Source: Porticoccaceae bacterium (GTDB lineage: Bacteria; Pseudomonadota; Gammaproteobacteria; Pseudomonadales; GM7GCV1). From it: DNA of 64,000 nucleotides. Each line of letters opens with the position of its first letter. The first letter of the stretch is position 1. The stretch covers positions 6,535-70,534 of the forward strand of contig JAYQPQ010000002.1 in NCBI GenBank assembly GCA_038145405.1. The letters run 5' to 3'. The notes beneath the pieces are model-generated. The model was not told the DNA's origin. It saw only the letters and a list, made by a program, of their open reading frames with translations, and did not search any database. The position numbers and the translations under genes are program-made. Below are positions 5,240 to 50,347 of the stretch, one piece after another.

Positions 5240-5547
5240 GGCCGCACTCCGGCCGGATGTGCAATAGCAGACGCAGAGGCGGCGCAGAGAGGCAGAAATC
5301 GGCGGCGGGCAGGTTCCTGTGAATGCCTCGGTCGCGGCATCCGTCGGGGAAATTCCTTGATCGGATCAGATAATGGAAAGCCAGGCTCCTCATACCAGGA
5401 CAGCAAAATTCTAAGTCAACGGCCCGCCCTGTCAACAGGCGCACGCTGCTCATGGCATAGCCGGGGCAATCCGCCTGAATATTTCCATTGACCCTTGCCA
5501 ACGCCTCGTTTAGGGTTGCGAACTCTCCGAAACCGAGCGGATTTGCC

Positions 5548-5784
5548 ATGGCCGAAAAGCCCAAAACCCTTGATTTTGAAAAGCAATTGAAAGAACTCGA
5601 ATCACTGGTGTCCAGCCTGGAATCCGGGGAACTGAGTCTCGATCAGGCGCTGCAAGCCTATGAAAAAGGTATCGCGCTAACGCGTGAATGCCAGGCAGCG
5701 CTCGAGCAGGCCCAGCAGCGCATTCAGGTGGTCAGTGAGCGCCACGGAGAGATCACCAGCGAGCCGCTCGATACCAGCGAATGA
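5548..5784 (+). CDS. xseB: exodeoxyribonuclease VII small subunit
   Basis: MAEKPKTLDFEKQLKELESLVSSLESGELSLDQALQAYEKGIAL is a typical XseB sequence. Upstream of ispA-dxs as in many gammaproteobacteria. The ORF-track start at 5488 is probably over-extended. Confidence 0.9.
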   Translation: MAEKPKTLDFEKQLKELESLVSSLESGELSLDQALQAYEKGIALTRECQAALEQAQQRIQVVSERHGEITSEPLDTSE

Positions 5785-8686: not shown

Positions 8687-10669
<1,983 letters not shown>

Positions 10670-32384: not shown

Positions 32385-33278
32385 ATGCACCCACTTCTCA
32401 AGTTACTGGCCACCGACCTGAAGCGTCATAAACGCATCGGACCGTACTGGCGTCTGATGCGTCTCGACCGCCCGGTGGGAACCTTGCTGATTCTCTGGCC
32501 CACTCTGGTCGGTCTGTGGCTGGCCACTGCAGGTCACCCGCCGCTGGGCCTGCTGGTAATCTTTGTAGTCGGCACCTTCCTGATGCGCGCAGCAGGTTGT
32601 GTGATCAATGATTTTGCCGACCGTCGAGTGGATGGCGCGGTGGAGCGCACGCGCACGCGCCCGCTGGCCACCGGCGAACTGCAACCGCAGCAGGCACTGC
32701 GCCTCTTTGTGTTGCTCTGTGTACTGGCTTTCGGACTGGTGCTCTTCACCAATTGGCTGACGATTGGCATGTCGTTAATTGGTGCATTGCTCGCTGCGAT
32801 CTACCCCTTCCTCAAGCGCTTCACCCACCTGCCGCAGGTCTGGCTCGGCATGGCCATGAACTGGGGTATTGTCATGGCCTGGACGGCAGGAACCGCTACC
32901 TTGGGTCGCGAAATCTGGGAGTTCTATCTGGCCGCTCTGTGCTGGACGGTAGCCTACGACACCTGCTACGCCATGGTGGATCGCGAGGACGATCTGCGCA
33001 TTGGGGTGAAATCCATCGCCATTCTGTTTGGCGACCTGGATCGCGCCATGATCGGGCTGCTGCAGTTACTCTGCCTGATGGCTCTGGCCCTGGGTGGCAA
33101 AGCCTTTGAACTAGGTCCGGTCTACCATCTGGCGCTGCTGACCATCGCAGCGCTATTCGGTTATCAGCAGTGGCTGATTCGCGGGCGCCAGCGCGATGCC
33201 TGTTTCGCTGCCTTCATGAACAATCGCTGGGTGGGGCTGGCGATGTTCCTCGGCGTCGGGCTGCACTACCTGTTGTGA
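32385..33278 (+). CDS. ubiA: 4-hydroxybenzoate polyprenyltransferase
   Basis: YWRLMRLDRPVGTLLILWPT...AGCVINDFADRRVDGAVERTRTRPLA (UbiA prenyltransferase Asp-rich motif). Confidence 0.93.
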   Translation: MHPLLKLLATDLKRHKRIGPYWRLMRLDRPVGTLLILWPTLVGLWLATAGHPPLGLLVIFVVGTFLMRAAGCVINDFADRRVDGAVERTRTRPLATGELQPQQALRLFVLLCVLAFGLVLFTNWLTIGMSLIGALLAAIYPFLKRFTHLPQVWLGMAMNWGIVMAWTAGTATLGREIWEFYLAALCWTVAYDTCYAMVDREDDLRIGVKSIAILFGDLDRAMIGLLQLLCLMALALGGKAFELGPVYHLALLTIAALFGYQQWLIRGRQRDACFAAFMNNRWVGLAMFLGVGLHYLL

Positions 33279-34411
33279 AGCTGGACATTCTGGATCGCCT
33301 GGACGCCGTCTCCCCGGCACGCTGGCAGAGCCTGGTGGGCTCCGACACACCCTTTACCTGCCACAGGTTTCTGTCTGCATTGGAAAGCTCGGGCTGTGTT
33401 TCAGCAGCGACCGGCTGGCAGCCTCACCATCTGACCTGGCACCAGAGCGGTGAGGTACAGGCGGTGATGCCCTGCTACCTTAAGCATCACTCTTACGGGG
33501 AGTATGTTTTCGACTGGAGCTGGGCCGACGCCATGCAGCAATTGGGCCGATCTTATTTCCCCAAGCTGGTAACGGCCATTCCCTTTACGCCGGTTACTGG
33601 ACCTCGCCTGTTGAGGGCGCCGGGCCTGCAGCCAAATGAATTGGTTGCGCAGGCCATGGACTGGTTGCACAGCACCCTGCCGCAGCGCGGCATTTCCAGC
33701 TTTCACCTGCTGTTTGCCGAGGACGACCTGGCAGCACCGCTGCAGGCGTCCGGTCTGGCCGAGCGTCAGGCCGTGCAGTTTCTCTGGCGCAACCCGGGCT
33801 ACGGCAGCTTCGAGGATTTTCTGGGCCTGATGAAATCCGCCAAACGCAAGCAGATCCGGCGCGAGAGAGCGCGGGTAGCGGAGCAGGGCATCGAGATACG
33901 ACGCTTTCTGGCTGACGACCTGAGCCTGGACGTCCTGGCCATCTTTCTGGCCTGCTATCAGGACACCTACCTCAAGCGTTCCGGACACAGCGGTTATCTG
34001 AATGAGGCCTTTTTTCAATCGCTTTGGCTGCACATGCGCGACCGCATATTGCTGCTGGTCGCGCAGCGTGGGGGTCAGCCGCTCGCCAGTGCGCTTTTTC
34101 TGTTCGACCAGAGCGGCCTTTACGGTCGCTATTGGGGCGCGCTGGAGCCGGTCGACTGTCTGCATTTTGAGCTCTGCTACTATCAGGGCATCGACTTTGC
34201 CATCGAGCGCGGTCTGCCCTGCTTCAATCCCGGCACCCAGGGCGAACACAAGTTGATGCGCGGATTCGAACCGGTTCTCAGCCGCTCCTTTCATTGGATT
34301 GCCGAGCCCGCCTTTCACCAGGCGGTATGTCAGGCCACCCGTCGCGAGCGCACCCGGGTGCAGGCCTATGCCGAGGCGGCACGGCATCATCTTCCCTTTC
34401 GCCACGCATGA
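33275..34411 (+). CDS. FemAB/GNAT-like acyltransferase family protein (DUF482-type), function unknown
   Basis: About 378 aa from GTG 33275, which overlaps the ubiA TGA (GTGA). FLSALESSGCV...YGEYVFDWSWA...FYGRYWG pattern recalled from the DUF482 family. Assignment made by memory only. Confidence 0.65.
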   Translation: MKLDILDRLDAVSPARWQSLVGSDTPFTCHRFLSALESSGCVSAATGWQPHHLTWHQSGEVQAVMPCYLKHHSYGEYVFDWSWADAMQQLGRSYFPKLVTAIPFTPVTGPRLLRAPGLQPNELVAQAMDWLHSTLPQRGISSFHLLFAEDDLAAPLQASGLAERQAVQFLWRNPGYGSFEDFLGLMKSAKRKQIRRERARVAEQGIEIRRFLADDLSLDVLAIFLACYQDTYLKRSGHSGYLNEAFFQSLWLHMRDRILLLVAQRGGQPLASALFLFDQSGLYGRYWGALEPVDCLHFELCYYQGIDFAIERGLPCFNPGTQGEHKLMRGFEPVLSRSFHWIAEPAFHQAVCQATRRERTRVQAYAEAARHHLPFRHA

Positions 34412-34457: not shown

Positions 34458-34490
34458 AAAATGACGGAAAAACCAGCGGATAGCTTGCCC

Positions 34491-35201
34491 ATGGAACGCA
34501 AGACCATATTGATCGTCGACGATGAGCGCGCCATTCGCGACATGCTCAAGGTCGCTCTGGATATGGCCGATTTCAACTGTCTCGAGGCGCAGAATGCGCG
34601 CGAGGCCCAGGTCTGTGTCGTCGACCAGCGTCCCGACCTGGTGTTGCTGGACTGGATGATGCCCGAGGTCAGCGGTATTGAACTGCTGCGGCGCTGGCGA
34701 CGCAGCGAGCAGACGCGCGATCTGCCGGTGATCATGCTGACTGCACGGGGCGAAGAAGAGAACACCATCAAGGGTCTCGACTCGGGCGCTGACGACTATC
34801 TGTCCAAGCCCTTTTCGCCGCGCGAACTGGTGGCGCGAATTCGCTCGCTGCTGCGCCGCACCGCGCCCGAAACCAGCGAAGAGCAGCTGACCGTCGGCGG
34901 CCTGGTGATGGATCCGGTAAGCCGCGCCGTAACCATCGAGGGTGTGCCAGTGGTGCTGGGTCCCACGGAATATCGTTTGCTGGAATTCTTCCTGACTCAC
35001 CCCAATCGCGCTTATACCCGCAATCAGTTGCTGAATAACGTTTGGGGCGCCAATGTCTTCATTGACGAGCGCACCATCGACGTTCACATAGGCCGGCTGC
35101 GCAAGGCCATTGCACATCGGGGCTACGACGCCTGTGTGCAGACGGTTCGCGGCTTTGGCTATCGATTTTCCCAGGAAGCTTTGGTTAAATCAGCGCCCTG
35201 A
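34491..35201 (+). CDS. phoB: phosphate regulon response regulator
   Basis: ILIVDDERAIRDML...LDWMMPEVSGIEL...MLTARGEEE...LSKPFSPRELVARI plus a winged-helix C-domain. ATG 34491 is preferred because the Pho box and -10 element overlap the ORF-track start at 34461. Confidence 0.93.
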   Translation: MERKTILIVDDERAIRDMLKVALDMADFNCLEAQNAREAQVCVVDQRPDLVLLDWMMPEVSGIELLRRWRRSEQTRDLPVIMLTARGEEENTIKGLDSGADDYLSKPFSPRELVARIRSLLRRTAPETSEEQLTVGGLVMDPVSRAVTIEGVPVVLGPTEYRLLEFFLTHPNRAYTRNQLLNNVWGANVFIDERTIDVHIGRLRKAIAHRGYDACVQTVRGFGYRFSQEALVKSAP

Positions 35202-35232
35202 TCCCAACCCGGCGAGGCATCGCCCCGGAGCC

Positions 35233-36552
35233 GTGCAGAATCCACTCAAGGCCGAGTCCGGCCCCATCCTGATCACGGTTATCGTAGGCCTCGGCCTGGG
35301 GATTGCCAGCGGCCACCTCTTTCTGGGGTTGTTCCTGTCCCTGACCGGTTATATCGCCTGGCAGCTTGCGCAGCTCAACAAGGTGCTGACGTGGATGCAG
35401 AACCCCAAGCGCGAGAATGCACCTGAAACCGCGGGCGCACTCGAGGATCTGGTTGCGCGCATCCAGAAAACGCTGCGCATCCAGGAGCTGGAAAGCGGCG
35501 TATTGCGGGCCAACCTCGACCAGCAGACCCGGCTCATATCCGAAGTGCGCGATGGCGTCATGGTCACGCGCGCCGGGGGTCGAATTTTGTGGACCAACAA
35601 GCAGGCTCAGTCTCTACTGCACATCCGTCCGGAGCGCGATCACGGCCTGCCCCTGACCCACGTTATCCGCAATCCGCATCTGCACAACTACCTGGCTAGC
35701 GAAAACTTTGCCGAACCCCTGCGCCTCAAGCTGGATCAGCTGCAGCGGCGCTGGTGCGAAATCAGCATCACGCCCTACCCAACCGGGGAACGCCTGTTCC
35801 TGATTCGCGACGTAACCCGGCTGCAGCAGCTGGAGCAGATGCGAAGGGACTTTGTGGCCAATCTCTCGCACGAATTGAAGACCCCGCTGACCGTGTTGCG
35901 CGGCTATCTGGAGACCCTGCCCGTGCACGAAGGGACATCGCCCTCGGTGGCACGCATTCACCAGGAGATGGAGAAACAGTGCGACCGCATGTCCAGCCTG
36001 CTGAAGGATCTGCTCCTGCTGGCCCAGCTCGAGGATGCCGACTCAGAAATGTTTTTCGGCAGTGTCGACGTGCCGCAGATGATCAAGCGCATCGTTGCCG
36101 ATGCCGAACGTCTTAGCGACGCTAGCCATGCGATCAGCCTCAAGGTCGACCCGGATTTGCGCCTGACGGCGGTGGAAGTCGAGCTGTTCAGCGCCTTTAG
36201 CAATCTGGTGGTGAATGCCGTGCGCCATACACCGCCGGGTACCCCTATCGAAGTGCAATGGTTTGCCGATGCTCGCGGAGCCCATTTTGTGGTGGTCGAC
36301 CAAGGTCCGGGTATAGACGAGCGTCATCGGAGTCGCCTGACCGAGCGGTTCTACCGCGTCGAGTCGAGCAGGAATTCGGCAACCGGGGGCACCGGCCTGG
36401 GGCTGGCTATCGTCAAGCACGTGCTGCTGCGCCAGGGCGCCGAGCTGCAAATTGAAAGTCAGATCGGCGAGGGCAGCCACTTCAGCTGCCATTTCCCGCC
36501 CGAGCAAATTGCATCCGCAAGCGAGGCGCGCGCCCGCTTGGCAGGTCAGTAG
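35233..36552 (+). CDS. phoR: phosphate regulon sensor histidine kinase
   Basis: Two N-terminal TM helices, a PAS-like region, H-box FVANLSHELKTPLTVLRGY, and an HATPase domain (GGTGLGLAIVKHVL). GTG 35233 avoids overlap with phoB. Confidence 0.9.
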   Translation: MQNPLKAESGPILITVIVGLGLGIASGHLFLGLFLSLTGYIAWQLAQLNKVLTWMQNPKRENAPETAGALEDLVARIQKTLRIQELESGVLRANLDQQTRLISEVRDGVMVTRAGGRILWTNKQAQSLLHIRPERDHGLPLTHVIRNPHLHNYLASENFAEPLRLKLDQLQRRWCEISITPYPTGERLFLIRDVTRLQQLEQMRRDFVANLSHELKTPLTVLRGYLETLPVHEGTSPSVARIHQEMEKQCDRMSSLLKDLLLLAQLEDADSEMFFGSVDVPQMIKRIVADAERLSDASHAISLKVDPDLRLTAVEVELFSAFSNLVVNAVRHTPPGTPIEVQWFADARGAHFVVVDQGPGIDERHRSRLTERFYRVESSRNSATGGTGLGLAIVKHVLLRQGAELQIESQIGEGSHFSCHFPPEQIASASEARARLAGQ

Positions 36553-37104: not shown

Positions 37105-38571
37105 ATGACCGCAAACTCCGCCGAATCGGTGCGCTGGGAGAATCTGTATCGCCAGCTCGGGCCCGCCTTCCACACAGCCATTCGGCCAGCGCCGCTGAAC
37201 AATGCCCGTCTGGTCCACCTCAACGCGGAACTGGCAGGCCAGCTGAGGCTGGATGGCGCCCATGCGGAGCAGCTGCTACGCCAATTCAACGGCGAAACGC
37301 CGCTCGATGGGCGCGAACCCCTGGCTAGCCTCTATGCGGGACACCAGTTCGGCAGCTGGGTCAGTCAGCTGGGCGATGGCCGCGCTGCACTGATTGGCCA
37401 ACGCCGCGATGCCGCAGGTCAATTGTGGGATATCCAGAGCAAGGGCTGCGGCCCGACCCCCTACTCGCGTCATGCCGATGGACGCGCCGTGTTGCGGTCC
37501 TGTATCCGCGAGTATCTGTGCAGTGAATCCATGCACGGCCTGGGCATTCCCACCACCCGCGCACTGGCGCTGCTGGATTCGGACACCCCCGTCTATCGGG
37601 AGCAGGTCGAACGCGGTGCCATCCTGGTGCGCGTTGCCGAATCCCATCTGCGCTTCGGCCATTTCGAGGTGTTCGCTTCGCGTCAGCAAAAGGATGAGGT
37701 TCGGGTGCTGGCCGACTACCTCCTCGCACATCACTTTGCCCATCTGGCCGATGTGTCCGACCCTTATCTGGCGCTTTATCGGGAAGTGCTCGAACGCAGC
37801 GCCGACCTGATGGCTCAGTGGCAGGCGGTTGGCTTTTGTCATGGCGTGATGAACACCGACAACATGTCGATCCTGGGCCTGACCCTGGATTACGGCCCCT
37901 TCGGCTTCATGGAGGAATACGATCCGGCCCACATCTGCAACCACTCCGACTTCCAGGGCCGCTACGCCTACCAGGCGCAACCCCGGGTGGCCCATTGGAA
38001 TCTGGCCTGTCTCGGCCAGGCGCTGCTCGACCTGATCGACTTCGAGGCGGCGCAGGCAGTGCTGCAAAGCTTTCCCGCCCGCTTTGCCGACGCCTATCAG
38101 CGGCGCATGGCGCCCAAGCTCGGGTTATCAGCGCAGGATCCCGAGCTGGAAGGGCTATTGAACGGCTGGCTGAATTTACTGGCGGCGCATCGCGTCGACT
38201 TCACCCTGGCTTTCCGCCGCCTGGCGGAGCTGGCAGCGGGGGACGCCCTTGCCGAGGCCTGGCTGGAAGACGCCCTGCAGGCAGATCCTGCCTGGCAGCT
38301 GTGGCGCGAGAACTATCTGCGCAGGCTGCGCGTCGAGTCGGGGAGCGTCGAGAAGCGTGTGCAAGCCATGTTCATGGCCAACCCACTGTATATTCTGCGC
38401 AATGCCTTTGCCCAACGCGCGATTGAGCGCGCGGAGCACGGCGACTACGGCGAGATCAATCGGCTGTTTCACCTGCTGCGCCATCCCTATCAGGCGCAAG
38501 CCGACGGCAACCCTTATGAAAATCCGGCGCCGCAACAGGAGCGTCACCTCGCTGTCAGCTGCTCGTCCTAG
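37105..38571 (+). CDS. selO: protein adenylyltransferase SelO (YdiU)
   Basis: LYAGHQFGSWVSQLGDGRA...SKGCGPTPYSRHADGRAVLRSCIREYLCSE...GVMNTDNMSILGLTLDYGPFGF. Confidence 0.92.
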   Translation: MTANSAESVRWENLYRQLGPAFHTAIRPAPLNNARLVHLNAELAGQLRLDGAHAEQLLRQFNGETPLDGREPLASLYAGHQFGSWVSQLGDGRAALIGQRRDAAGQLWDIQSKGCGPTPYSRHADGRAVLRSCIREYLCSESMHGLGIPTTRALALLDSDTPVYREQVERGAILVRVAESHLRFGHFEVFASRQQKDEVRVLADYLLAHHFAHLADVSDPYLALYREVLERSADLMAQWQAVGFCHGVMNTDNMSILGLTLDYGPFGFMEEYDPAHICNHSDFQGRYAYQAQPRVAHWNLACLGQALLDLIDFEAAQAVLQSFPARFADAYQRRMAPKLGLSAQDPELEGLLNGWLNLLAAHRVDFTLAFRRLAELAAGDALAEAWLEDALQADPAWQLWRENYLRRLRVESGSVEKRVQAMFMANPLYILRNAFAQRAIERAEHGDYGEINRLFHLLRHPYQAQADGNPYENPAPQQERHLAVSCSS

Positions 38572-40442
38572 CGGGTGGCGAGCGGAACTTCCAGGGCAAA
38601 CAGCACGCCGCTGCCGTCGGCAAGATTGACAGCGGTCAACTTGCCGCCGTGAAATTCGGCAATGCGTCGGGCAATGCTCAAGCCCAGACCCAGGTGGCCG
38701 TCAGCCGCCTTCTCAGCCGGCCGCAGGGACACCATGGAAGCAAAGATGTCCTGCTCTGCTCCCTCGGGCAGCAGGGGTCCCCTATTGGTGATCGACATGC
38801 GCCAGATATCGCCGAGGCGTCCCGACTGTACCCGAATTTCGGTGCCCGGCTCGGCAAAGCTCAATGCATTCTCCACCAGCTTGTCGACCAGCTGGGCCAG
38901 CAGGTCGGGCGAGCCATCGAGCCGCCCCCCACGCGCTTCGTCCAGTGCACGATAAGTCACCCGCGCCTGCGGAAAGGCCTGGCCGTAGGCGGCGACCAGC
39001 TCCCTGATCAGGGCATCCGCATCAAAATTGCAGCGCGCGGTGCGCTCGATGCCCGACTCCAGAGAATTGGCTTCGGCCATGCTGCGCAGCATCTTGCGCA
39101 GGCGCTCAATGCCCTGGCGTGCGCGTTCGGCAAAGACTGCTCGCTCCTCCGGGTCGTCGGCGCTGTCCAGGTTGTCGAGGGAAGAGCCGATGATAGTGAG
39201 CGGGGTGCGCATTTCATGCGACAGACGACCCGCCATGCCCTCCATATAGTCCGTATATTTTTGCAGCCGCCGGGTGAGCTGGGCATAGGCCCGCGTCAGC
39301 TCACCCAGTTCGTCGGCGGAGCGGGACGGTGCAAAATCACCATCGACCCGGCCGTGCTCATCGATTAGCCCATGCGTCCAGCGACTGAGCTGGCGCAGGC
39401 GGCGGGACAGCCAGCCGGCATAGGCAAACAAACCCGCCAACACCAGCACCAACAACCCCAGGCTGGCGAGAAGCCACTGCCTGAGCAAATCCGCATAGAG
39501 TTGCAGAAAGCTGTGCAGCTCGCTTTGCAGCACCAGTCGACCTACAGCGAGACCCGAAATTCGCACCGGCAGGCGCAGTTCCAGTTGCGGCGCAGTTCCG
39601 TCCCAGATCCAGACAACCTCACCCGAGCCCTGATCCAGACTGGCGTCGAACTGACGAGGCAGCCAGCGAGCTGCCGAGGTCGACCAGCGCGAAGGGGAAA
39701 CAAATTCGGGAACGGATCCAGCGGCGGCAACTTCCCAGCCGTCGGTGGTAAGAAATGCCAGTCTGGTGCCTCCATCGGCAAAGACACTCAGGTCATCCTG
39801 CAAGCCTTCCGGCTGTGTTATCCAGGCCAGCGGCTTGCCCTGACTCCCCAGACCCCAACTCCGATTCGCCGTGCCCAGCGCCGCCAGGGTCAGACCCACC
39901 TGCGGGCCAATCTGACTGGTTGGAAAAGCTAATTCCAGGACCAGCTGTTCGCCGCGTACCTGCCAGCGACCCAGCACGCCAAGAGCTCGATAGGCCGGCT
40001 CCGGTTGCAACAAGCCATCCAGTTGCAACTCGAGTTCGATGCGTGCCGCACCGGTCCACAATGCCATCTGCACCTCACCGGGCGCTCGCGCTGGCAGTCG
40101 TGTCCCGAGAAAAAGCGTGTCGCCGACACGAAGTCGATACAGCTCTGGAACGCCCTGCGGTGCTGCGGGCTGCAGCGGCCAGTCGGCGAGATCGCCGTCG
40201 ACCAGGGGCGGCTGCGGTGCCGACGGAAAATAGATGCGCTGGCTGCTATCGAGCTGAATCAGATCGCGAAACTGCTCTGGCTGCGACTGCAGATAGGCAA
40301 CGATGAGTTGGGCACGGGCGCGCTGGGCGTCGAGCTCACCCTGCAACAACAGACCGACCAGTTGAGAAAATACCTGATAGCCGGCCCAGGGCAATGCCAG
40401 CAGCAGCAGGCTCAGTAACAGGAGCTGGCGACTGAGGCTCAA
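38568..40442 (-). CDS. sensor histidine kinase with a periplasmic domain of about 300 aa
   Basis: TM1 (LLLLSLLLLALPWAG), a large extracytoplasmic region, TM2 (LLASLGLLVLVLAGLFAYAGW), H-box RLSHEMRTPLT, and HATPase (GLGLSIARRIAEFHGG). The TTG start overlaps the regulator TGA (TTGA). Confidence 0.85.
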   Translation of the reverse strand: MSLSRQLLLLSLLLLALPWAGYQVFSQLVGLLLQGELDAQRARAQLIVAYLQSQPEQFRDLIQLDSSQRIYFPSAPQPPLVDGDLADWPLQPAAPQGVPELYRLRVGDTLFLGTRLPARAPGEVQMALWTGAARIELELQLDGLLQPEPAYRALGVLGRWQVRGEQLVLELAFPTSQIGPQVGLTLAALGTANRSWGLGSQGKPLAWITQPEGLQDDLSVFADGGTRLAFLTTDGWEVAAAGSVPEFVSPSRWSTSAARWLPRQFDASLDQGSGEVVWIWDGTAPQLELRLPVRISGLAVGRLVLQSELHSFLQLYADLLRQWLLASLGLLVLVLAGLFAYAGWLSRRLRQLSRWTHGLIDEHGRVDGDFAPSRSADELGELTRAYAQLTRRLQKYTDYMEGMAGRLSHEMRTPLTIIGSSLDNLDSADDPEERAVFAERARQGIERLRKMLRSMAEANSLESGIERTARCNFDADALIRELVAAYGQAFPQARVTYRALDEARGGRLDGSPDLLAQLVDKLVENALSFAEPGTEIRVQSGRLGDIWRMSITNRGPLLPEGAEQDIFASMVSLRPAEKAADGHLGLGLSIARRIAEFHGGKLTAVNLADGSGVLFALEVPLATR

Positions 40443-41128
40443 GCGGTGTCCGACCAGCGATAGCCCATACCATAGGCTGTCTTGATGGCATCAAAGCCGG
40501 TGTCCACCTGCTGGAATTTCTGGCGAATGCGCTTGATATGACTGGTAATGGTGCCCTCGTCGAGAACCACCTTAGCGGCGTCCATCAACTGTTGCCGGCT
40601 GCGCAGATGGCCGGGGTGCCGCGCCAGCGCATGCACCATCCAGAATTCCGTCAGCGTCAGATCCAGGGCCTGTCCGCGCCAACTGGCCGACATGCGGTCG
40701 AGATCGAGCAACAGGTCGCCGCGTTCCAGCCGCTCTTCCTGTGGTTGATTGTCCTGCTGGCTGCGTCGCAACAGGGCGGATACCCGCGCCAGCAACTGCT
40801 GCTGACTGACATCCTTGCTGACGTAGTCATCGGCGCCTACGCGCAATCCCGAGACCACGTCGTAGTCCGAGTCCCTGGCCGAAAGGATAATGATGGGCAG
40901 TTGCGCCGAACGGCTGCGCAGATCGCGGCATAGTTCGAAGCCGCCCTCGAGGTCGTCGCCTAGCCCGATATCCAGAATGGCCAGGTCGGGCAAGCCGATC
41001 TGGAATGCCTGCTGGGCTTCCTGGCGAGAGGCGAAGGTCTGCACCCGATAGCCCTGGCGGCCGAGCATGGCCGCATAGTTGGCTGCGATAGCTGGCTCGT
41101 CTTCGACGATGACTATGCGACTCTTCAC
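40439..41128 (-). CDS. OmpR-family response regulator
   Basis: From GTG 41128: KSRIVIVEDEPAIAANY...DLAILDIGLGDD...ILSARDSDYD plus a winged-helix domain (LTLTEFWMVHALARHPG...YGMGYRW). The 351-aa ORF-track version is an over-extension into the OmpA gene. Confidence 0.88.
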   Translation of the reverse strand: MKSRIVIVEDEPAIAANYAAMLGRQGYRVQTFASRQEAQQAFQIGLPDLAILDIGLGDDLEGGFELCRDLRSRSAQLPIIILSARDSDYDVVSGLRVGADDYVSKDVSQQQLLARVSALLRRSQQDNQPQEERLERGDLLLDLDRMSASWRGQALDLTLTEFWMVHALARHPGHLRSRQQLMDAAKVVLDEGTITSHIKRIRQKFQQVDTGFDAIKTAYGMGYRWSDTA

Positions 41129-41252
41129 GTCCCACCCCAGGTCTTCAATGGCCCACCATGGTAACCAAATTTGTGCGGGCTCCACAGCACGTCGCACCCA
41201 GAAAAAAGGGCCGCCGGAGGGCGCGGCCCGAAGGGGACAGAGGGAAAAGGAC

Positions 41253-41945
41253 TCAGGGATCCATGGCAACGGCATTGGTAGTTTCGCCGACCTGGAACAC
41301 CTCGATCTCGACGCGGCGCTGCAGAGCGAAGGTATCGAGGTCATAGCTGGCACCGGTGGGCATGCTGGCACCATGGTGGAAAATGGCGATGCGGCTCTTG
41401 GGTACGCCAAGCTGATTGAGTGCGGCGGCGACGTTCTGGGCGCGGTACATGGCAAGGACGTTGTTGTACTCATCCGTGCCTCGTGGGTCGGCATAGCCGT
41501 CCAGTCGTACCTGCAAATCGGGATTGCGTATCAGGTAGCCGGCGAGCATCTTGAGTCGCTCGAAATCTTCGCTGTTCAACTCGTCGGTGCCGGTGGCAAA
41601 CATCACCTGAAAAGCCAGACGCGAGTACAGCGCCGAGCTCATGTCATCGAGCCTTAGTTCCAGCTGATCAATTTGCTGACGCTGGCGATGGCTTTCCTCG
41701 GCGACGCGATTGCGCTCCCGTTCGACCTGGCCGAGTCGGTCCGCTCGTTCGATGTGCTCACCCAGCCAGCCGCCCCCGGCGGCGCCGAATACCATTCCCA
41801 CCGGTCCGGCGGCCAGCGTACCGGCCAAGGTCGTGGTGAATAGCGTTAGCCCCTGTTTCCAGGCCGTGCTTGTTTCGATTGGGTCGGTGTTGGTGTCTGC
41901 CAGTGCAAGGCTGGGCAGAAGCAGAAGGATCAGTGCTTTGTTCAT
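41253..41945 (-). CDS. OmpA-family protein (signal peptide, Gly-rich hydrophobic segment, coiled coil, OmpA_C domain)
   Basis: MNKALILLLLPSLALA signal, GPVGMVFGAAGGGWLG, coiled coil ERERNRVAEESHRQRQQIDQLELRL, then VMFATGTDEL...VRLDGYADPRGTDEYNNVLAMYRAQNV. Confidence 0.85.
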   Translation of the reverse strand: MNKALILLLLPSLALADTNTDPIETSTAWKQGLTLFTTTLAGTLAAGPVGMVFGAAGGGWLGEHIERADRLGQVERERNRVAEESHRQRQQIDQLELRLDDMSSALYSRLAFQVMFATGTDELNSEDFERLKMLAGYLIRNPDLQVRLDGYADPRGTDEYNNVLAMYRAQNVAAALNQLGVPKSRIAIFHHGASMPTGASYDLDTFALQRRVEIEVFQVGETTNAVAMDP

Positions 41946-42000
41946 GAGGGTTTTCTCCAGGTTTTGTCAGGTTCCGGCTTTCCCGGTGTGTCCATTGAAG

Positions 42001-42047
42001 AAAACAAAAAAGGCCTGGCGCGGACCGATTAGGGCATCGCGCCGACC
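42001..42047 (-). terminator. rho-independent terminator after the TSUP gene
   Basis: Minus strand: GGTCGGCGCG-loop-CGCGCC(A)GGCC followed by TTTTTTGTTTT. Confidence 0.55.
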
Positions 42048-42075
42048 AAAGATGGCGAATTGTGGCAGTGGCCGA

Positions 42076-42825
42076 CTAGAACATCAGCTTGAGAATGAAG
42101 AGCAGGATGACCACCAAAAATACGCGTCGTATCAGGGGTTCGCCGCGCGTCAGGGTCATGTGTGCTCCGAGCCAGCCGCCGAGAAAATTCCCCAGCGCGA
42201 GACTCAAGCCCACCAACCAGAGCACCTGGCCGCTGTGCATAAATATGACCGTGGCCACGAGCGTGTACACCAGCACGATAAAGACCTTGTGCTGGTTTAC
42301 CCGAACCAGGTCTATGCCCAGAATGCGGTTCAACGCCGGCATCAGCAGAAAGCCGACACCGACCTGTATCAGGCCGCCCCAGAAGCCGATCCCCAGCATC
42401 GCCAGATGGCCAACCACCTGGCGGCCCCGACTCAGCTGCACCTGTTGCGGACTTCTGGCAGCGGGTGGCCGCAGCATCAGGAGCATGACCACCACCATGG
42501 TCAAGGCCAATAGCCGGTCAAAATTCTCACCGGCCAGGCGCGTGCCCAGCACGGCACCCGCCGCGGCGCCGGGCAAGGTCGCCAGCGCCAGACTCAGACC
42601 CAGGCGCCAGTCCGGGTAGCCGCGATAAAAAAAGGTGGAGCAGGCCGAAATGCTTTGCAACACCACACCAATGCGATTCGTTCCATTGGCCACTGGGCCG
42701 GGGATGCCCAGAAAAAGCATGATGGGTATGGTTAACAGCGAACCGCCGCCGGCCAGCACGTTGATCCAGCCGGCCACCAGTCCAGCCAAGGCGAGCAGGG
42801 GAAAATGCCAGAGTTCCAGGCTCAA
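42076..42825 (-). CDS. TSUP (TauE/SafE) family sulfite/anion exporter
   Basis: LLALAGLVAGWINVLAGGGSLLTIPIMLFLGIPGPVANGTNRIG and a repeated half. TTG 42825 is preceded by AGGGGG at 6-nt spacing and overlaps the upstream ORF's TGA (TTGA). Confidence 0.85.
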   Translation of the reverse strand: MSLELWHFPLLALAGLVAGWINVLAGGGSLLTIPIMLFLGIPGPVANGTNRIGVVLQSISACSTFFYRGYPDWRLGLSLALATLPGAAAGAVLGTRLAGENFDRLLALTMVVVMLLMLRPPAARSPQQVQLSRGRQVVGHLAMLGIGFWGGLIQVGVGFLLMPALNRILGIDLVRVNQHKVFIVLVYTLVATVIFMHSGQVLWLVGLSLALGNFLGGWLGAHMTLTRGEPLIRRVFLVVILLFILKLMF

Positions 42826-43025
42826 GCAATGCCCCCTGTAGGATCGCGCAAAAATACTGGCGTCCCTGATCTGGATGCGTCTGCAGCGTAACAATGGTCT
42901 TCCAGGTTGTAGCCGGCCGAATCATAGAAGCGCCTTGGAGCCAGGCGCTCTGCACGGGTAGTTTTGGTCGCAACTGGGACAGATGCGCAATCCAGGGTCT
43001 TGGCCGGCGCGAGCAAAATCAGCAT
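42822..43025 (-). pseudogene. yaaA: yaaA (UPF0246 peroxide-stress protein) remnant: N-terminus fused in frame to C-terminus
   Basis: 67 aa. MLILLAPAKTLDCASVPVATKTT compares with E. coli YaaA MLILISPAKTLDY (from memory). The tail FYDSAGYNLEDH...GTPVFLRD compares with the YaaA C-terminus FNSEGYFFDED...GELVFKR. About 190 central residues are missing. Confidence 0.6.
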
Positions 43026-44908: not shown

Positions 44909-45631
44909 TCAGTTGTCCTGAACTTGTTCTTCCATCTCCTTGAATGAGCTGTGGCGCACATCCACGCCTTTGACCATATAGATCAGCTGCTCGGAGAGAT
45001 TCTTGACGTGGTCGCCAATGCGCTCCAGAGAGCGCAGCGCCCAGATGATATTCAAGACTTTGGAAATGGAGCGCGGGTCTTCCATCATGTAGGTGACCAT
45101 TTCGCGCAGTGCAGTGCGGTACTCCTGGTCCACCAGCTTGTCCTGCTTGGCAATATCCACGCTGCCCTCGGCGTCGAGCCGACCGTAGGCATTGAGCAGA
45201 TTGCTCAGCATCGCCGTCACCAGACTGGCGACATGGCGTATTTCGATGTAGCCGCGCGCAGCGGCTTCTTCTTCAATCAACTTGATAGCCATCTTGGCAA
45301 TCTTGTTGGCTTCGTCGCCGATGCGCTCAAGATCCTGTACCGACTTGCTGATACCCAGAATCAGGCGTAAATCCGAAGCGGTCGGTTGGCGTGTGGCGAT
45401 GAGACGTACACAAGCCTTGTCGATTTGCACATCGTACTCGTTCACCTGAGCCTCATTGGCAATCACCGCAGCGGCCAGCTCGGAGTCGGGTGCCTCCAGC
45501 GAGTTCAGGGCGTCGGACAGCTGCTTTTCCACCACTCCGCCCATTTCCAGAAACTTGCTGATCAAGCTACTCAGCTCGTCATCGAACTTGTGGAAAATGT
45601 GCTTTTCCAAGGGTGCTCCTTCTTTCGGCAT
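44909..45631 (-). CDS. phoU: phosphate signalling complex protein PhoU
   Basis: Two PhoU repeats (IGDEANKIAKMA and IGDHVKNLSEQL). Last gene of the pst operon. Confidence 0.95.
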   Translation of the reverse strand: MPKEGAPLEKHIFHKFDDELSSLISKFLEMGGVVEKQLSDALNSLEAPDSELAAAVIANEAQVNEYDVQIDKACVRLIATRQPTASDLRLILGISKSVQDLERIGDEANKIAKMAIKLIEEEAAARGYIEIRHVASLVTAMLSNLLNAYGRLDAEGSVDIAKQDKLVDQEYRTALREMVTYMMEDPRSISKVLNIIWALRSLERIGDHVKNLSEQLIYMVKGVDVRHSSFKEMEEQVQDN

Positions 45632-45639
45632 AAGCGACC

Positions 45640-46506
45640 TCAGCCAAATCGGCCCGTGATGTAGTCTTCAGTTAACTGGTGCTCAGGATTGGTGAACACC
45701 ACTTCGGTCGAGTTCACCTCGATCAGTTTACCCAAGTGGAAGTAGGCTGTCCGGTTCGACACGCGCGCGGCCTGCTGCATGGAGTGAGTAACGATGGCGA
45801 TGGTGTAGTTGTTGGACAACTCCGTCATCAGTTCCTCAATGCGCGCTGTCGCAATGGGGTCCAGTGCCGAACAGGGTTCATCCATCAGGATTACCTCGGG
45901 GCTGATGGCAATGGCCCGCGCGATACAGAGGCGCTGCTGCTGGCCTCCGGAAAGCCCGGTACCCGGCGAGTGCAGTCGATCCTTCACTTCGTCCCAAAGG
46001 CCAGCGCGGCGCAGGCTGGTTTCCACTACCTCATCCAGATCCTCCTTGCGCGAACAGAGGCCGTGAATTTTCGGCCCATAGGCGACATTCTCGTAAATGG
46101 TCTTGGGAAAGGGATTGGGCTTCTGAAATACCATCCCAACCCGGGCGCGCAACTTCACCGGATCCATGTCGCGGCGGTAGACCTCTTCGCCGTCCAGCAG
46201 AATATCCCCGCTGACCCGACAGCCGGGAATGGTGTCGTTCATGCGATTAAGACAGCGCAGGAAGGTCGACTTGCCGCAACCCGAGGGGCCGATCATGGCG
46301 ATGATCTCGTTACGCGCAATGTCCAGGCTGACATCGAATATGGCCTGCTTTTCGCCGTAAAAGACGTTGATATTGCGCATGGAAAACTTGGCGCTTTCCA
46401 GCAGCGCTTTGCCTACGGTTTTCACATGTTCGTGCTCGGTGAGCATGCTTGCCTCGGTGCCTTTTGCAGAAGCGGTGTGGGCCAGGCCCAGATCCAGGGT
46501 TGTCAT
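45640..46506 (-). CDS. pstB: phosphate ABC transporter ATP-binding protein
   Basis: [47 protein letters not shown]. The alternative start ATG 46446 has a better Shine-Dalgarno (GAGG). Confidence 0.95.
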
Positions 46507-46513
46507 GAAAATG

Positions 46514-47800
46514 CTACCAGCGTCGTTCGAGTTTTTTGCGCAGCAGCACGGCTGCGGAGTTCATACTGATAAGGAAGGCCAAGAGTACCAGAATGGCTCC
46601 GGATGTCTTCTCCACAAAGGCGCGCTCGGGGCTGTCGGCCCACAGATAAATCTGCACCGGCAGCACGGTGGAGGAATCGGTCAGCGAACCCGGCACATCG
46701 ACGATAAAGGCCACCATGCCGATCATCAGCAACGGAGCCGTTTCACCCAGGGCGCGCGCCATGCCGATAATGGACCCGGTGAGCATGCCCGGCATTGCCA
46801 GCGGCAGGACGTGGTGCATCACGGTCTGGGTATGTGATGCGCCAACACCCAGCGCCGCCTCGCGAATCGAGGGTGGCACCGCCTTGATGGACGAGCGGCT
46901 GGAAATAATGATGGTCGGCAGGGTCATGACCGTCAGCACCAGACCACCTACTAAGGGCGCCGAACGAGGCATGCCAAAGAAGTTGATAAATATTGCCAGG
47001 CCGAGCAAGCCAAAAATAATGGAGGGCACGGCGGCCAGGTTATTAATATTCACCTCGATGATCTGGGTGAAGCGATTTCGCGGAGCGAACTCCTCCAGGT
47101 AGAGCGCGGCCGCCACGCCGATCGGAAAGGACAGCGCCAGGGTCACCACCAGGGTCAGCAGGGACCCCACCACGGCGCCGAGAATGCCGGCTTGCTCGGG
47201 TTCGCGCGAATCGCCAGAGGTAAAGAAGGCACCGTTGAAAGCCAGGCGCAGGGCGCCCTGCTGCTCGAGTTCGTCGAGCCACTGCAGCTTGAGGTCGGAT
47301 ACCCGGCGTTGAGTCTCCGGCAGGCTGGTATTGATATAGCCCTTGCGGTACATATCGACTTCGTCGTCGGCGGTGAGCCAAAGCCTTTGTCGCGTCCCCA
47401 GCCACGCGGGATTTTCCTGCAAGGCGTCGGCCAGGTAATAAGTGGCCCCCGAGCTCACTAGGCTGAGCAGATCGCGCCGTTCGGCGCGCGCCGTGACATG
47501 GGGAAAGCGCTCGAAGATGGCTTCGCGCAGAGCGGCATCCACATTGGCATCGGCCAGATCTTCGGCGCTGGCGGAAGCGGGCAGGCCCAGACGTTCCGGA
47601 CTGAAATCCACTTCCAGCTGCACCTGAGCCTGAAAAAAGGCGAGGTGGCCCTTGCGCAAAATGTCGCCAAACAGCAGCGCCAGCACGGCTAGACCGAAGA
47701 AAATTGCCAGGCGTCCATACCACTGGAATCGGGCCTCGGCGCGGTAGCGTCTTTGCAAACCGGCATTGATCAGGGCGAGGCTTTCCGAGGGGCTATTCAT
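46514..47800 (-). CDS. pstA: phosphate ABC transporter permease PstA (long form)
   Basis: Second permease in the pstSCAB order. Has the EAA-loop region [14 protein letters not shown]. 8-nt overlap with pstC. Confidence 0.9.
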
Positions 47801-49175
47801 ATTGCTCCCGATAACGGTTCACCACCCAGAGGGCAATGATGTTCAGAATCAGGGTGACGACAAAGAGCACCAAGCCCAAGGCAAAGGCTGCCAGGGTCTT
47901 GGCACTGTCAAACTCCTGATCGCCCACCAGCAGAGTGACGATCTGCACTGTTACCGTGGTTACCGATTCCAGGGGATTGGCCGTGAGGTTGGCCGCCAGG
48001 CCGGCTGCCATGACCACGATCATGGTTTCGCCAATGGCCCGCGACACGGCCAGCAGCACGCCACCGACAATGCCCGGCAGCGCCGCTGGGATAATCACGC
48101 GGCGCACTGTCTCGGACTGGGTTGCACCCAAGCCGAAAGAGCCATCGCGCAAGGATTGGGGCACGGCGTTGATGACATCGTCCGATAGCGACGATACGAA
48201 GGGAATAATCATTATGCCCATGACTAGACCGGCGGCCAGCGCGCTCTCCGATGAGGTGACAAAGCCCAGTTGCTCGCCCCAGTCGCGGATAAAGGGAGCC
48301 ACTGTTAAGGCAGCAAAGAATCCGTACACCACGGTGGGAATGCCCGCCAACACTTCCAGCAGCGGTTTGGCGATGCCACGCAGTCGGGGGCTGGCGTATT
48401 CGGCCAGATAGATGGCAGACATGAGGCCGACGGGTACGGCTACACACATGGCCACAAAGGAAATTTGCAGGGTACCGACGAACAGCGGCACCGCGCCGAA
48501 GGAACCGGAAGCACCCACCTGATCCGTACGAATGGCGGTTTGCGGACTCCAGTGCAGACCACCAATAAACTCCCAGAAGGACACCTGCTGGAAAAACCGA
48601 AGAGCTTCAAACAGCACGGAGAGCACTATGCCCAGGGTGGTGAGGATGGCGATCAGCGAGCAGGCCATCAACAGCGCGCGCAGGGTAAATTCAACCTCAT
48701 TGCGCGCCGCCAGTTGCGGGCGAATGCGGCGCACCGCCAACACCAGTCCGACCAGCGACAAGGCCAGTACCACCAGGGTCATCCACCAGCGATTGACGCG
48801 CACCAGATTCTGGCTGTAATCGGCGGCCGCCAGCAGGGTGGGGTCAGTCGAGACCAGCGTACCGCTGGCGACATTGGCGATTTGCGCCAGTAGCAGACTG
48901 CGTTCGCCCGGCGTGGCGGGCAGCTGGGCCTCGGGGATAGACAGCAGAGTCAGCTCGCGGATAAGTAGGTCATCGAGCCCAAACCAGAGCAACAACAGTA
49001 CGAGTGCGGGCAGGCCCGACCAGTAGGCCACCATGCTGCCGTAATAGGAGGGCAGCGAATGCAGGAAACGCTGGCCACCCACGCCCTGGGCGAGCTGACG
49101 GGAACGGAGGCGCCCGAGGACGAAGCCGAAACCCGCCAGCAACACGACCAGGATGAGAAGAGATGAAAACCCCAT
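47793..49175 (-). CDS. pstC: phosphate ABC transporter permease PstC (long form)
   Basis: First permease after pstS. Has RDGSFGLGATQSETV (EAA loop) and multiple TM helices. Confidence 0.9.
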   Translation of the reverse strand: MGFSSLLILVVLLAGFGFVLGRLRSRQLAQGVGGQRFLHSLPSYYGSMVAYWSGLPALVLLLLWFGLDDLLIRELTLLSIPEAQLPATPGERSLLLAQIANVASGTLVSTDPTLLAAADYSQNLVRVNRWWMTLVVLALSLVGLVLAVRRIRPQLAARNEVEFTLRALLMACSLIAILTTLGIVLSVLFEALRFFQQVSFWEFIGGLHWSPQTAIRTDQVGASGSFGAVPLFVGTLQISFVAMCVAVPVGLMSAIYLAEYASPRLRGIAKPLLEVLAGIPTVVYGFFAALTVAPFIRDWGEQLGFVTSSESALAAGLVMGIMIIPFVSSLSDDVINAVPQSLRDGSFGLGATQSETVRRVIIPAALPGIVGGVLLAVSRAIGETMIVVMAAGLAANLTANPLESVTTVTVQIVTLLVGDQEFDSAKTLAAFALGLVLFVVTLILNIIALWVVNRYREQYE

Positions 49176-49222
49176 GCTGCAATGATATCAGCAGACGGAT
49201 GACATGCAGATGACTAAGGCGA

Positions 49223-50347
49223 TCAGTGGTGCACGACCGCCATATTTTCCAGGCTTTCCACCAATGCGTCGTATTCATCTGCGGCCAGCGGAATCAGTCC
49301 GCGGTCGGACAAATAGCCAAATTCACCCACCGCGTTCTCACTGACGAACTCGTTGAGGAATTCCATCATGCCGGGTACCACGCCAATGTGGTTCTTCTTG
49401 ACGTAGATGAAGAGGGGGCGAGATACCGCGTAATCGCCGCTGGCGATGGCATCGAAGTCCGGTGCCACACCCTCGATGGCGTGTCCGCGCACGATGTCCT
49501 GGTTCTGGTCGAGAAAGCTAAAGCCCATGATGCCCACCGCACGCGGGTTGGCGCCGAGCTTCTGCACGATCAGATTGTCGTTCTCGCCGGCTTCGATGAA
49601 CTTGCCGTCTTCGCGAATTTTGAAGGAGAGGAGTTCGACCAGGTCCGCGCCGGTGGGGTTACCCAAGCCACGCGTCATCTCGGCATAGGCTTCGGCATTG
49701 ACACCGAGACCGGTCAGAGCCTCACGCAGGTCAGCCGCGCTCACGCCTTCCAGTTCGTGCAGCAACTCAATGCTCTCGGCGCCCGGCAGCATGACGAGTT
49801 CCAAAAAGGCGTCGCGCGTGCCAGAGGTCGGCGGCGGGCCGAGCACTTCGATGGCTTCATTGGGCAGTGCCGGATTCACCTGCTGCCAGGTCTGGTAGGG
49901 GTTGCGCACCAGTTGACCTGAGGCGTTGGGCACCCAGGCAGCCAGTGCCAGATATATATCGCGCAGACTCAGACTCATCTGCTGACCTGCCATGGAGCTG
50001 ACCAGCACGATGCCGTCATAGCCGATTTTCAATTCGACCACCTCAACGCCCCTGGCTTCACAGTCGGCCAGTTCAGAATCGGTGATGGCGCGCGAGGCAT
50101 TGGTTACATCGGGGAAGGCTTCGCCGACGCCGGCGCAAAATTGTTTCATGCCACCGCCGGTGCCAGTAGACTCCACCTTTGGCGTCTTGAACCCGGTGGA
50201 ACGACCAAAACGTTCGGCAACCAGCGTAGTAAAGGGATATACGGTAGAGGATCCGACCACGCTGATCTGATCGCGGGCCGCCCACACCGGGCTGGTACCA
50301 AGCAGGGTTAAGCTGAACAGTGCGCTGAGAATGCGAAGTTTAGACAT
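49223..50347 (-). CDS. pstS: phosphate ABC transporter substrate-binding protein (PstS family, PBP_like_2 type)
   Basis: Signal peptide, then ISVVGSSTVYPFTTLVAERF, typical of this PstS subfamily. Heads the pst operon behind the Pho boxes. Confidence 0.88.
   Translation of the reverse strand: MSKLRILSALFSLTLLGTSPVWAARDQISVVGSSTVYPFTTLVAERFGRSTGFKTPKVESTGTGGGMKQFCAGVGEAFPDVTNASRAITDSELADCEARGVEVVELKIGYDGIVLVSSMAGQQMSLSLRDIYLALAAWVPNASGQLVRNPYQTWQQVNPALPNEAIEVLGPPPTSGTRDAFLELVMLPGAESIELLHELEGVSAADLREALTGLGVNAEAYAEMTRGLGNPTGADLVELLSFKIREDGKFIEAGENDNLIVQKLGANPRAVGIMGFSFLDQNQDIVRGHAIEGVAPDFDAIASGDYAVSRPLFIYVKKNHIGVVPGMMEFLNEFVSENAVGEFGYLSDRGLIPLAADEYDALVESLENMAVVHH

Follow-up and report, generated by a model that had tools for sequence, protein, structure and literature searches.

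A regulatory triad of the kind named after the proteobacterial dedicated sortase (Pds) raises a simple question where no sortase lies beside it: what does it control, and in response to what? Such a triad occupies positions 38568-41945 on the minus strand of a 64-kb stretch from a Porticoccaceae bacterium (GenBank assembly GCA_038145405.1, contig JAYQPQ010000002.1), referred to here in its full length as the window. Its three co-oriented genes encode an OmpA-like protein, an OmpR-type response regulator and a histidine kinase (Table 1), and open reading frames (ORFs) and Pfam matches confirm the products and orientation that the initial annotation had read from the sequence alone. The triad is probably a rare, divergent member of the PdsS/PdsR/PdsO (PghKR) family, an envelope and most likely cell-wall stress circuit that induces its PdsO-like gene through a predicted regulator box.

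The statement in that annotation that the function of such triads is unknown is outdated. Shewanella oneidensis SO2192/SO2193 are PdsS/PdsR, renamed PghK/PghR, a pair that senses peptidoglycan damage and induces pdsO (Yin et al., bioRxiv 10.1101/2023.05.05.539549). PghKR is activated specifically by peptidoglycan-targeting antibiotics and by PBP1a/LpoA loss, and induces blaA, relV and the divergent pdsO-target-srtA operon more than 17-fold (bioRxiv 10.1101/2023.05.05.539549). Signalling requires residues of the sensor domain, R177, Y178 and I289 being essential in PghK, and the resulting beta-lactam resistance is independent of the sortase genes (bioRxiv 10.1101/2023.05.05.539549). A recurrent G547W mutation in pdsS of S. 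algae raises pdsO 799-fold (PMC11580497), and PghKR has been employed as a biosensor for cell-wall antibiotics (2026, PMC13488354). PdsS/PdsR, long annotated merely as an accessory of an enigmatic Gram-negative sortase, is thus recast as a peptidoglycan-damage sensor that drives beta-lactam resistance.

Family membership of the three proteins

The regulator passes the curated model of the Pds family. It scores 360.1 bits on TIGR03787 (PdsR), above the cut-off of 335.7 (E 4e-108, residues 4-226 of 229), and its next-best family, CreB, reaches 185 bits. The protein consists of Response_reg and Trans_reg_C domains and shares 52.7% identity with Thalassotalea PdsR. As read from the sequence, D53 is the phospho-acceptor in a conserved receiver motif. 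The recognition helix, TITSHIKRIRQKF, equals the family consensus exactly; the helix motif TITSHIKRIRxKF is at least 90% conserved over 77 family regulators. Two longer versions of the regulator, the 351-aa longest ORF (to 41494) and a 278-aa gene call (L001), were rejected as over-extensions because homologues have about 230 aa, TIGR03787 already aligns from residue 4 to 226 of the shorter form, and the added stretch would contain an intrinsic terminator.

The kinase has TIGR03785 (PdsS) as its top family at 362.1 bits but stays below the cut-off of 612.2, with mainly residues 281-620 aligned; CreC follows at 135 bits. A generic CreBC-like system was rejected on these scores (CreB 185 and CreC 135 bits; PdsR 360 and PdsS 362 bits). 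Pfam identifies HisKA and HATPase_c domains, and H409, in the motif LSHEMRTP, is the phospho-acceptor and invariant in the alignment of the kinase family. Full-length identity with PdsS-family kinases is 29-34%. The TTG start at 40442-40440 overlaps the regulator TGA at 40441-39, an overlap already noted in the initial annotation, and residue 1 of the protein aligns with residue 1 of all homologues.

The OmpA-like protein likewise has the Pds model as its top family, TIGR03789 (pdsO), and at 84.6 bits lies below the cut-off of 152.2; the second NCBIfam match is YiaD_Gzip_OmpA (NF053611) at 76.6 bits (cut-off 175). A signal peptide, a Gly-zipper-like hydrophobic segment, a charged helical linker and a peptidoglycan-binding OmpA_C domain follow one another, with the Pfam OmpA domain at residues 115-196. 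By eye, the signal peptide looks cleavable and lacks a lipobox Cys. Within the Gly-rich hydrophobic segment, G42, G47, P48, G50 and G58 are invariant across aligned PdsO-like proteins, and the OmpA_C domain retains D153, R168 and the motif TDEYNxxL..R. PdsO proteins above the cut-off align with the window protein from end to end and have the invariant residues in common with it. The signal peptide and Gly-rich segment described by the initial annotation therefore stand, the former by eye; its coiled coil, placed in the charged linker, is an eye judgement only.

Calibration on comparison loci puts the two sub-threshold scores in context. Kinases directly beside a sortase and target also fall below the TIGR03785 cut-off (L013 at 573 bits, L047 at 566 bits), and among the calibrated kinases only those of Alteromonadales type pass it (786 and 913 bits). 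In Halieaceae locus L016, the product of a box-preceded OmpA gene about 1 kb from a sortase scores 95.6 on TIGR03789. Elsewhere this model gives 106.5 bits for Microbulbifer, below the cut-off, and 209 and 187 bits for Thalassotalea and Alteromonas, which pass. Comparator sortases and targets pass TIGR03784 and TIGR03788. Since sub-threshold scores are also found in sortase-bearing loci, the window kinase and OmpA-like protein are best described as divergent, not as shown to be unrelated. The likeness to a Pds triad proposed in the initial annotation thus holds at the cut-off for the regulator, and for the other two proteins at the level of best family, yet under the cut-off. The outcome that the annotation had taken to speak against any Pds relation, with all three proteins below trusted cut-offs, is not what was found, the regulator scoring 360.1 against 335.7.

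The triad is kept as a unit in six genomes, namely the window and five contigs of its clade. Kinases of the clade are 43-44% identical to the window kinase where measured (P0002-P0004), and the sensor domains of other clade members (P0227-P0229) are 32-34% identical to that of the window.

Table 1. Coordinates of the triad, its sensor domain, predicted regulatory elements and flanking genes in the window
Feature	Position	Strand	Basis or remarks
OmpA-like gene, PdsO-like	41253..41945	-	230 aa; best NCBIfam TIGR03789, Pfam OmpA
PdsR/PghR-type OmpR-family response regulator	40439..41128	-	229 aa, GTG start; TIGR03787
PdsS/PghK-type sensor histidine kinase	38568..40442	-	624 aa; best family TIGR03785
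Periplasmic sensor domain, residues 23-325	39468..40376	-	alpha/beta PAS/Cache-like subdomain with inserted beta-sandwich
Predicted PdsR/PghR-type regulator box, direct repeat AAAGATGGCGAATTGTGGCAG, 10-11 bp period	42048..42068	+	position weight matrix, 25.7 bits
Conserved TTCAAT hexamer within block TTTTCTTCAATG, candidate -10 of the OmpA-gene promoter	41994..41999	-	alignment
Intrinsic terminator between OmpA gene and regulator gene	41208..41229	-	7 G-C pairs, then TTTTTT
Promoter-like block upstream of regulator, GCACAAATTTGGTTACCATG, TACCAT -10-like hexamer	41157..41176	-	conserved in window, L002, L003
SelO (PF02696), flank	37105-38571	+	Pfam
TauE/TSUP (PF01925) permease, flank	42076-42894	-	Pfam

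The periplasmic sensor domain

The kinase has the architecture that the initial annotation had described, two transmembrane (TM) helices around some 300 extracytoplasmic residues. TM1 spans residues ~5-22 and TM2 ~323-345, bounding a periplasmic sensor from residue 23 to ~322; a HAMP-like linker, HisKA and HATPase follow. A Pfam scan finds no domain in the stretch of some 300 residues that the helices enclose, and a profile search of solved structures recovers the cytoplasmic kinase core only. A single-sequence phmmer search with the sensor against 1.84 billion representatives returns four matches, the sensor itself and three relatives.

Homology of the sensor to PdsS was shown by profile-profile comparison, because the single-sequence search fell short of the canonical sensors. 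With the periplasmic domains alone, hhalign of seven window-clade sensors against 44 canonical ones gives a probability of 99.7% (E 5e-26) over all 303 columns. The window sensor is thus homologous to canonical PdsS sensors; the relationship is real but remote. Landmark residues D82-G83, W88, G143, W160, E170 and P174 are kept, and the domain falls about 55 residues short of the canonical PdsS length. Such heavy remodelling is evidently tolerated by the sensor domain.

The structure prediction for which the initial annotation had called resolves two subdomains. The AlphaFold2 model of the sensor (pLDDT 87.9, pTM 0.82) has N- and C-terminal helices, an alpha/beta subdomain and an inserted beta-sandwich, the same two-subdomain plan that has been described for the sensor of PghK. 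Foldseek searches with the whole model are dominated by generic beta-sandwich and immunoglobulin (Ig) matches, and the isolated beta-sandwich does only slightly better. Among the sensor matches are 2ivf_C, the gamma subunit of ethylbenzene dehydrogenase (probability 0.99-1.0; weak, E ~1e-2), which we take to have a DOMON/CBM9-like fold, and the family 9 carbohydrate-binding module (CBM) 1i82_A (probability 0.99, TMq 0.48). The alpha/beta subdomain weakly matches the extracellular Cache domain of WalK (4ywz, 7dud). Pfam CBM9 has no match in the window sensor and a weak match in 5 of 48 relatives. Taken together, the fold matches lend tentative support to a CBM9-like beta-sandwich.

A predicted regulator box and the local transcription units

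Family loci have a predicted regulator box in common, which is not described in the papers searched. It was extracted from the sequence ahead of the regulator gene, where most of these loci have a tandem direct repeat with the consensus AATTGTGACCAATTGTGGCAA and a 10-11 bp period. A 21-bp position weight matrix (PWM), built from 30 sites in loci outside the window clade, finds one outstanding match in the 64 kb at 25.7 bits; the runner-up reaches 13.7 bits and the maximum of 100 shuffles 19.2 bits. The degenerate pattern ATGRYNAATTRTGGC has one exact match in the window and none in 100 shuffles. The predicted box lies 103 bp upstream of the OmpA-like ATG and starts 8 nt past the TauE stop.

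Both the presence and the placement of the box recur. The same box stands in the same place in L002, L003, L088 and L089 (28-30 bits), as well as in four species of Microbulbifer that have this gene order; all five clade members whose OmpA upstream region is in hand carry it. Across 1.45 Mb of family loci, nearly all boxes of at least 17 bits sit at one of two positions. The first is just upstream of the regulator gene, usually in a divergent intergenic region, and the second is ~20-270 bp (mostly 40-145) upstream of OmpA-like or target genes, wherever these are located. Without exception, boxes of at least 17 bits and the effector gene are on opposite strands, and the spacing and orientation of the window box fit this pattern. 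A conserved box that marks regulated genes provides a handle for regulon prediction in any genome.

The window box would serve the OmpA-like gene alone among the three. The box, the TTTTCTTCAATG block and the ribosome-binding site are conserved upstream of the OmpA gene in three clade genomes, and an alignment of the window, L002 and L003 without gaps shows the TTCAAT hexamer of the block unchanged, with constant spacing to the box. The candidate promoter of the OmpA gene is placed by this hexamer, which a consensus promoter scan did not flag. Downstream, the intrinsic terminator that divides the OmpA gene from the regulator gene has equivalents, a hairpin and T-run, at the same place in L002 and L003. 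No box precedes the window regulator: over 300 bp of upstream sequence, PWM matches do not rise above noise. Because the regulator-kinase pair appears to have its own box-less promoter behind a terminator, the local output would be the OmpA-like protein alone.

The terminator also enters the argument for a different reading, in which an uncharacterised envelope two-component system lies beside an OmpA-family gene by chance and bears no relation to Pds. The terminator between the OmpA gene and the regulator speaks for it, as do the sub-cut-off scores of the kinase and OmpA-like protein. This reading is highly improbable and is already contradicted by the family scores, the box and the sensor hhalign result. 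The regulator passes its cut-off with the next-best families far lower (CreB 185, CreC 135 bits), the sensor aligns to its family at 99.7% probability, the OmpA gene is preceded by a family-specific box, and all three genes stay together in six genomes.

Further boxes were observed in other family loci. In Marinobacter daqiaonensis (L004/L052), a 29-bit box at 9185-9205 separates the regulator from a divergent 102-aa ORF without a Pfam match, and neither a sortase nor an OmpA-like gene lies within 10 kb; other box-controlled effectors may therefore exist. A Marinobacter metagenome-assembled genome (MAG; L030) has a second box at 4818-4838 (27.8 bits), 266 bp upstream of the gene for a 163-aa Pal-like OmpA_C protein (5104-5595) near the sortase operon, a further peptidoglycan-binding protein under a predicted box. 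Six Steroidobacteraceae loci (L029, L031, L036, L037, L049, L050) carry a box upstream of the regulator and no sortase; a YiaD-type Gly-zipper OmpA lipoprotein (271 bits, NF053611) is encoded 1.5-3.3 kb further upstream on the opposite strand.

Linkage to sortase and target

The initial annotation had found neither sortase nor target in the window, and directed searches agree. A tblastn search of the 64 kb with Thalassotalea sortase and target proteins gives nothing better than E 0.75, and a six-frame hmmsearch of the same 64 kb with local profiles built on some 30 sortases and targets gives no match at E<=1. Neither the class GN sortase (TIGR03784) nor the VIT/VWA LPXTG target (TIGR03788) occurs in the clade loci L002, L003 and L088-L090, on contigs of up to 18 kb. 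Sortase and target are thus outside the local module of the window lineage.

The tight tie to sortase-owning bacteria that the initial annotation had described is not upheld in the wider family. A genome scan with the kinase alignment recovered the loci of at least 80 species, 79 of which were tabulated: 34 with a target or sortase, 23 with only an OmpA-like gene and 22 with neither. Among the matches listed, 44 loci from different species are well flanked (at least 8 kb upstream and at least 5 kb downstream); 19 of them have a sortase or target within ~10 kb, 17 only an OmpA-like gene and eight neither. Among the 25 loci free of sortase and target are some from Alteromonas, with kinase and PdsO above the cut-offs. 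In a neighbour-joining (NJ) tree of the kinases, sortase linkage is scattered over clades and the window clade sits on a long branch. The survey adds to the Shewanella work that the unit of sensor, regulator and PdsO-like protein often occurs without an adjacent sortase.

These counts bear on the possibility that the genome encodes a complete Pds system, the triad being its accessory half and sortase and target lying elsewhere, co-regulated via further boxes. Such a system would be compatible with the sensing mechanism proposed below and would differ in regulon only. The regulator passes an equivalog model named for the Pds system, 34 of the 79 listed loci do have a target or sortase beside the regulator, and class GN sortases are very common (a search of the sortase family returned >8000 clusters, of which 120 were listed, mostly unnamed). 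Scattered arrangements exist, since in Thalassotalea ~5 kb separate pdsO from the sortase, which has a box of its own. A complete system is nonetheless somewhat unlikely here, in view of the absence of sortase and target from 64 kb and from five syntenic contigs, the 25 of 44 well-flanked loci among the matches listed that do without them, cut-off-passing Alteromonas included, and the Shewanella resistance phenotype, which depends on the two-component system and needs no sortase genes (bioRxiv 10.1101/2023.05.05.539549).

The opposite extreme, a lineage without any sortase, is unlikely. It would hold a minimal rewired module in which only the PdsO-like peptidoglycan-binding protein is controlled, by a strongly remodelled sensor whose putative ligand pocket has changed. 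If true, PdsO, and not the sortase with its target, would be the core effector of the PdsRS/PghKR family, and the name "dedicated sortase" would describe a secondary add-on.

Short kinases were also encountered in the survey. In Burkholderiales and other betaproteobacterial MAGs (L047, L062, L064, L076, L082), kinases with ORFs of ~530-615 aa lie directly beside target and sortase and match the window kinase only C-terminally, from about residue 292-338. Most betaproteobacterial PghKR homologues are without CBM9 (bioRxiv 10.1101/2023.05.05.539549), and the short N-terminal part may match these CBM9-less homologues. If these kinases do lack CBM9, sortase linkage is independent of that subdomain.

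Proposed mechanism

A mechanism can be proposed from the homology of the three proteins, their catalytic residues, the unique high-scoring box, the terminator and the synteny. The periplasmic domain of the kinase, combining a Cache/PAS-like part with a reduced CBM9/DOMON-like beta-sandwich, would perceive a cell-wall-derived cue. The kinase would then autophosphorylate at H409 and pass the phosphate to D53 of the regulator, and the phosphorylated regulator would bind the tandem-repeat box at 42048-42068 and activate the promoter of the OmpA-like gene. Its product combines a Gly-zipper membrane segment with an OmpA_C domain that binds peptidoglycan, and might reinforce or re-tether the envelope. 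The nature of the signal, activation rather than repression, and the role of the OmpA-like protein are inferred by analogy with the Shewanella work.

Several observations weigh against this proposal. The sensor is only 17-26% identical to canonical sensors, in addition to its shorter length and lack of a Pfam match, and a single-sequence phmmer search does not reach them. The R-Y motif of the family (e.g. NRYVIS in Thalassotalea) aligns to R134-I135 in the window kinase; the dipeptide probably corresponds to the essential R177/Y178 of PghK, a tentative mapping made by alignment. With a sensor so extremely diverged, the ligand may differ. The matches to the CBM9 fold are weak (TM <0.5, E ~1e-2), and generic Ig folds score similarly. 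The box is a predicted, computational footprint, and the PghKR preprint gives no regulator binding site (bioRxiv 10.1101/2023.05.05.539549). The promoter would be unusually laid out, with a terminator-like hairpin and T-run between the box and the candidate -10. The 64-kb window shows no blaA-like or relV-like target. As a side observation, the hairpin (GGCGCG...CGCGCC) and its T-run lie at 42001-42042 on the minus strand and have an equivalent in L002; they are presumably the TauE terminator.

The divergence of the sensor invites a further reading, in which the output from PdsR to pdsO is kept and the cue is something other than peptidoglycan damage, for example a different envelope signal or one linked to nutrients or phosphate. 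The sensor has been shortened and its sequence is hardly recognisable, the R-Y of the probable ligand pocket is R-I in the window and varies within the clade, and a position beside phoR-phoB and pst genes is kept in six of six clade members. A sensor re-tooled in this way is nevertheless distinctly unlikely. Homology at the profile level spans the whole domain, with W88, D82-G83, G143, W160, E170 and P174 kept; the output gene still encodes a peptidoglycan-binding protein; and the pho synteny may be mere vertical inheritance.

A divergent PghKR-type circuit with a PdsO-like output does not overturn the current understanding of the family. It refines the annotation of the triad and yields predictions of regulator binding and regulon.

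Genomic neighbourhood

The triad appears to be embedded in a phosphate-regulon neighbourhood. Its immediate flanks are selO and a TSUP exporter, as the initial annotation had named them (PF02696 and PF01925). Contig extent permitting, the clade gene order over the window and five contigs is TauE, OmpA, regulator, kinase, ICMT/PEMT, phoR, phoB. The selO gene between kinase and ICMT/PEMT occurs in the window only; in the four clade loci that extend to the junction (L002, L003, L088, L090), the kinase directly adjoins ICMT/PEMT. selO and the kinase gene are convergent, and their 3' ends share 4 nt. The phoB-phoR pair lies at 34461-36552 (plus strand) on one side of the triad, PhoR being named from Pfam matches on the relatives' contigs. 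On the other side, at 44909-50347 (minus strand), a run of ORFs resembles phoU-pstB-pstA-pstC-pstS; the pst names were assigned by eye and PhoU via Pfam matches in relatives.

Two further genes and one scan complete the description. A FemAB_like gene (PF04339, 'peptidoglycan biosynthesis/recognition') at 33170-34411 (plus strand) stands beside phoB, a few genes from the triad, and at the same position in L002, L003 and L088; it is conserved in the clade where contigs extend so far. A 1179-aa ORF at 56090-59629 (minus strand) carries a C-terminal TamB domain (PF04357), an outer-membrane biogenesis component unrelated to the triad. An Rfam scan of the window found no RNA families. The DXS protein encoded in the window is about 80% identical to metagenomic proteins and about 70% identical to proteins from Porticoccaceae, Spongiibacteraceae and Pseudomonadales MAGs, which points to an uncultured gammaproteobacterium within the Cellvibrionales/Pseudomonadales radiation.

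Comparison with known systems

WalK/WalR and VxrA/VxrB offer the most general parallel: there, too, an extracytoplasmic sensor signals cell-wall status to an OmpR-family regulator. These pairs have no family relationship to the window pair at the sequence level and differ in regulons and domain compositions. YiaD-type Gly-zipper/OmpA-like lipoproteins (NF053611) resemble the OmpA-like protein in that a Gly-zipper segment is followed by a peptidoglycan-binding OmpA_C domain. Unlike them, the window protein has no lipobox cysteine, and its long helical linker is common to PdsO, not to YiaD.

The Pds system (TIGR03784-TIGR03789), represented by Thalassotalea sp. ND16A (L005), has homologous regulator, kinase and OmpA-like components and the same regulator box ahead of its effector genes. 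It differs from the window and its syntenic relatives in its class GN sortase and VIT/VWA LPXTG target, which they lack, and in that the window kinase and PdsO-like protein score below the cut-offs.

Triads in Microbulbifer (M. bruguierae CP118605.1, M. aggregans, M. hainanensis and sp. MCCC 1A16149; L007, L010, L011, L018) have the gene order and orientation of the window. In each, a box on the other strand precedes the OmpA gene by 41-137 bp and, as in the window, no box of at least 17 bits precedes the regulator. They too sit among housekeeping genes with no sortase within 10 kb, and their OmpA protein is below the cut-off. By contrast, Microbulbifer kinases have a full-length sensor (~690-740 aa) and score 520 bits on TIGR03785; they group with sortase-linked Cellvibrionales kinases in the NJ tree, and their chromosomal neighbourhood is unlike that of the window.

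PghK/PghR of S. oneidensis MR-1 is the characterised counterpart of the window pair. The window sensor has ~300 residues against 393 in PghK, gives no CBM9 Pfam signal, and has R-I for the probable R-Y pocket motif. Its effector gene is co-oriented and upstream instead of divergent, no box stands directly upstream of the regulator, and neither target nor sortase is adjacent. Both pairs nonetheless have an OmpR-family regulator that matches TIGR03787, conserved phospho-acceptor His and Asp residues, and two membrane helices around a large sensor of two subdomains (alpha/beta and beta-sandwich). In both, a pdsO-type gene is the neighbouring output, regulated in Shewanella and predicted to be so here.

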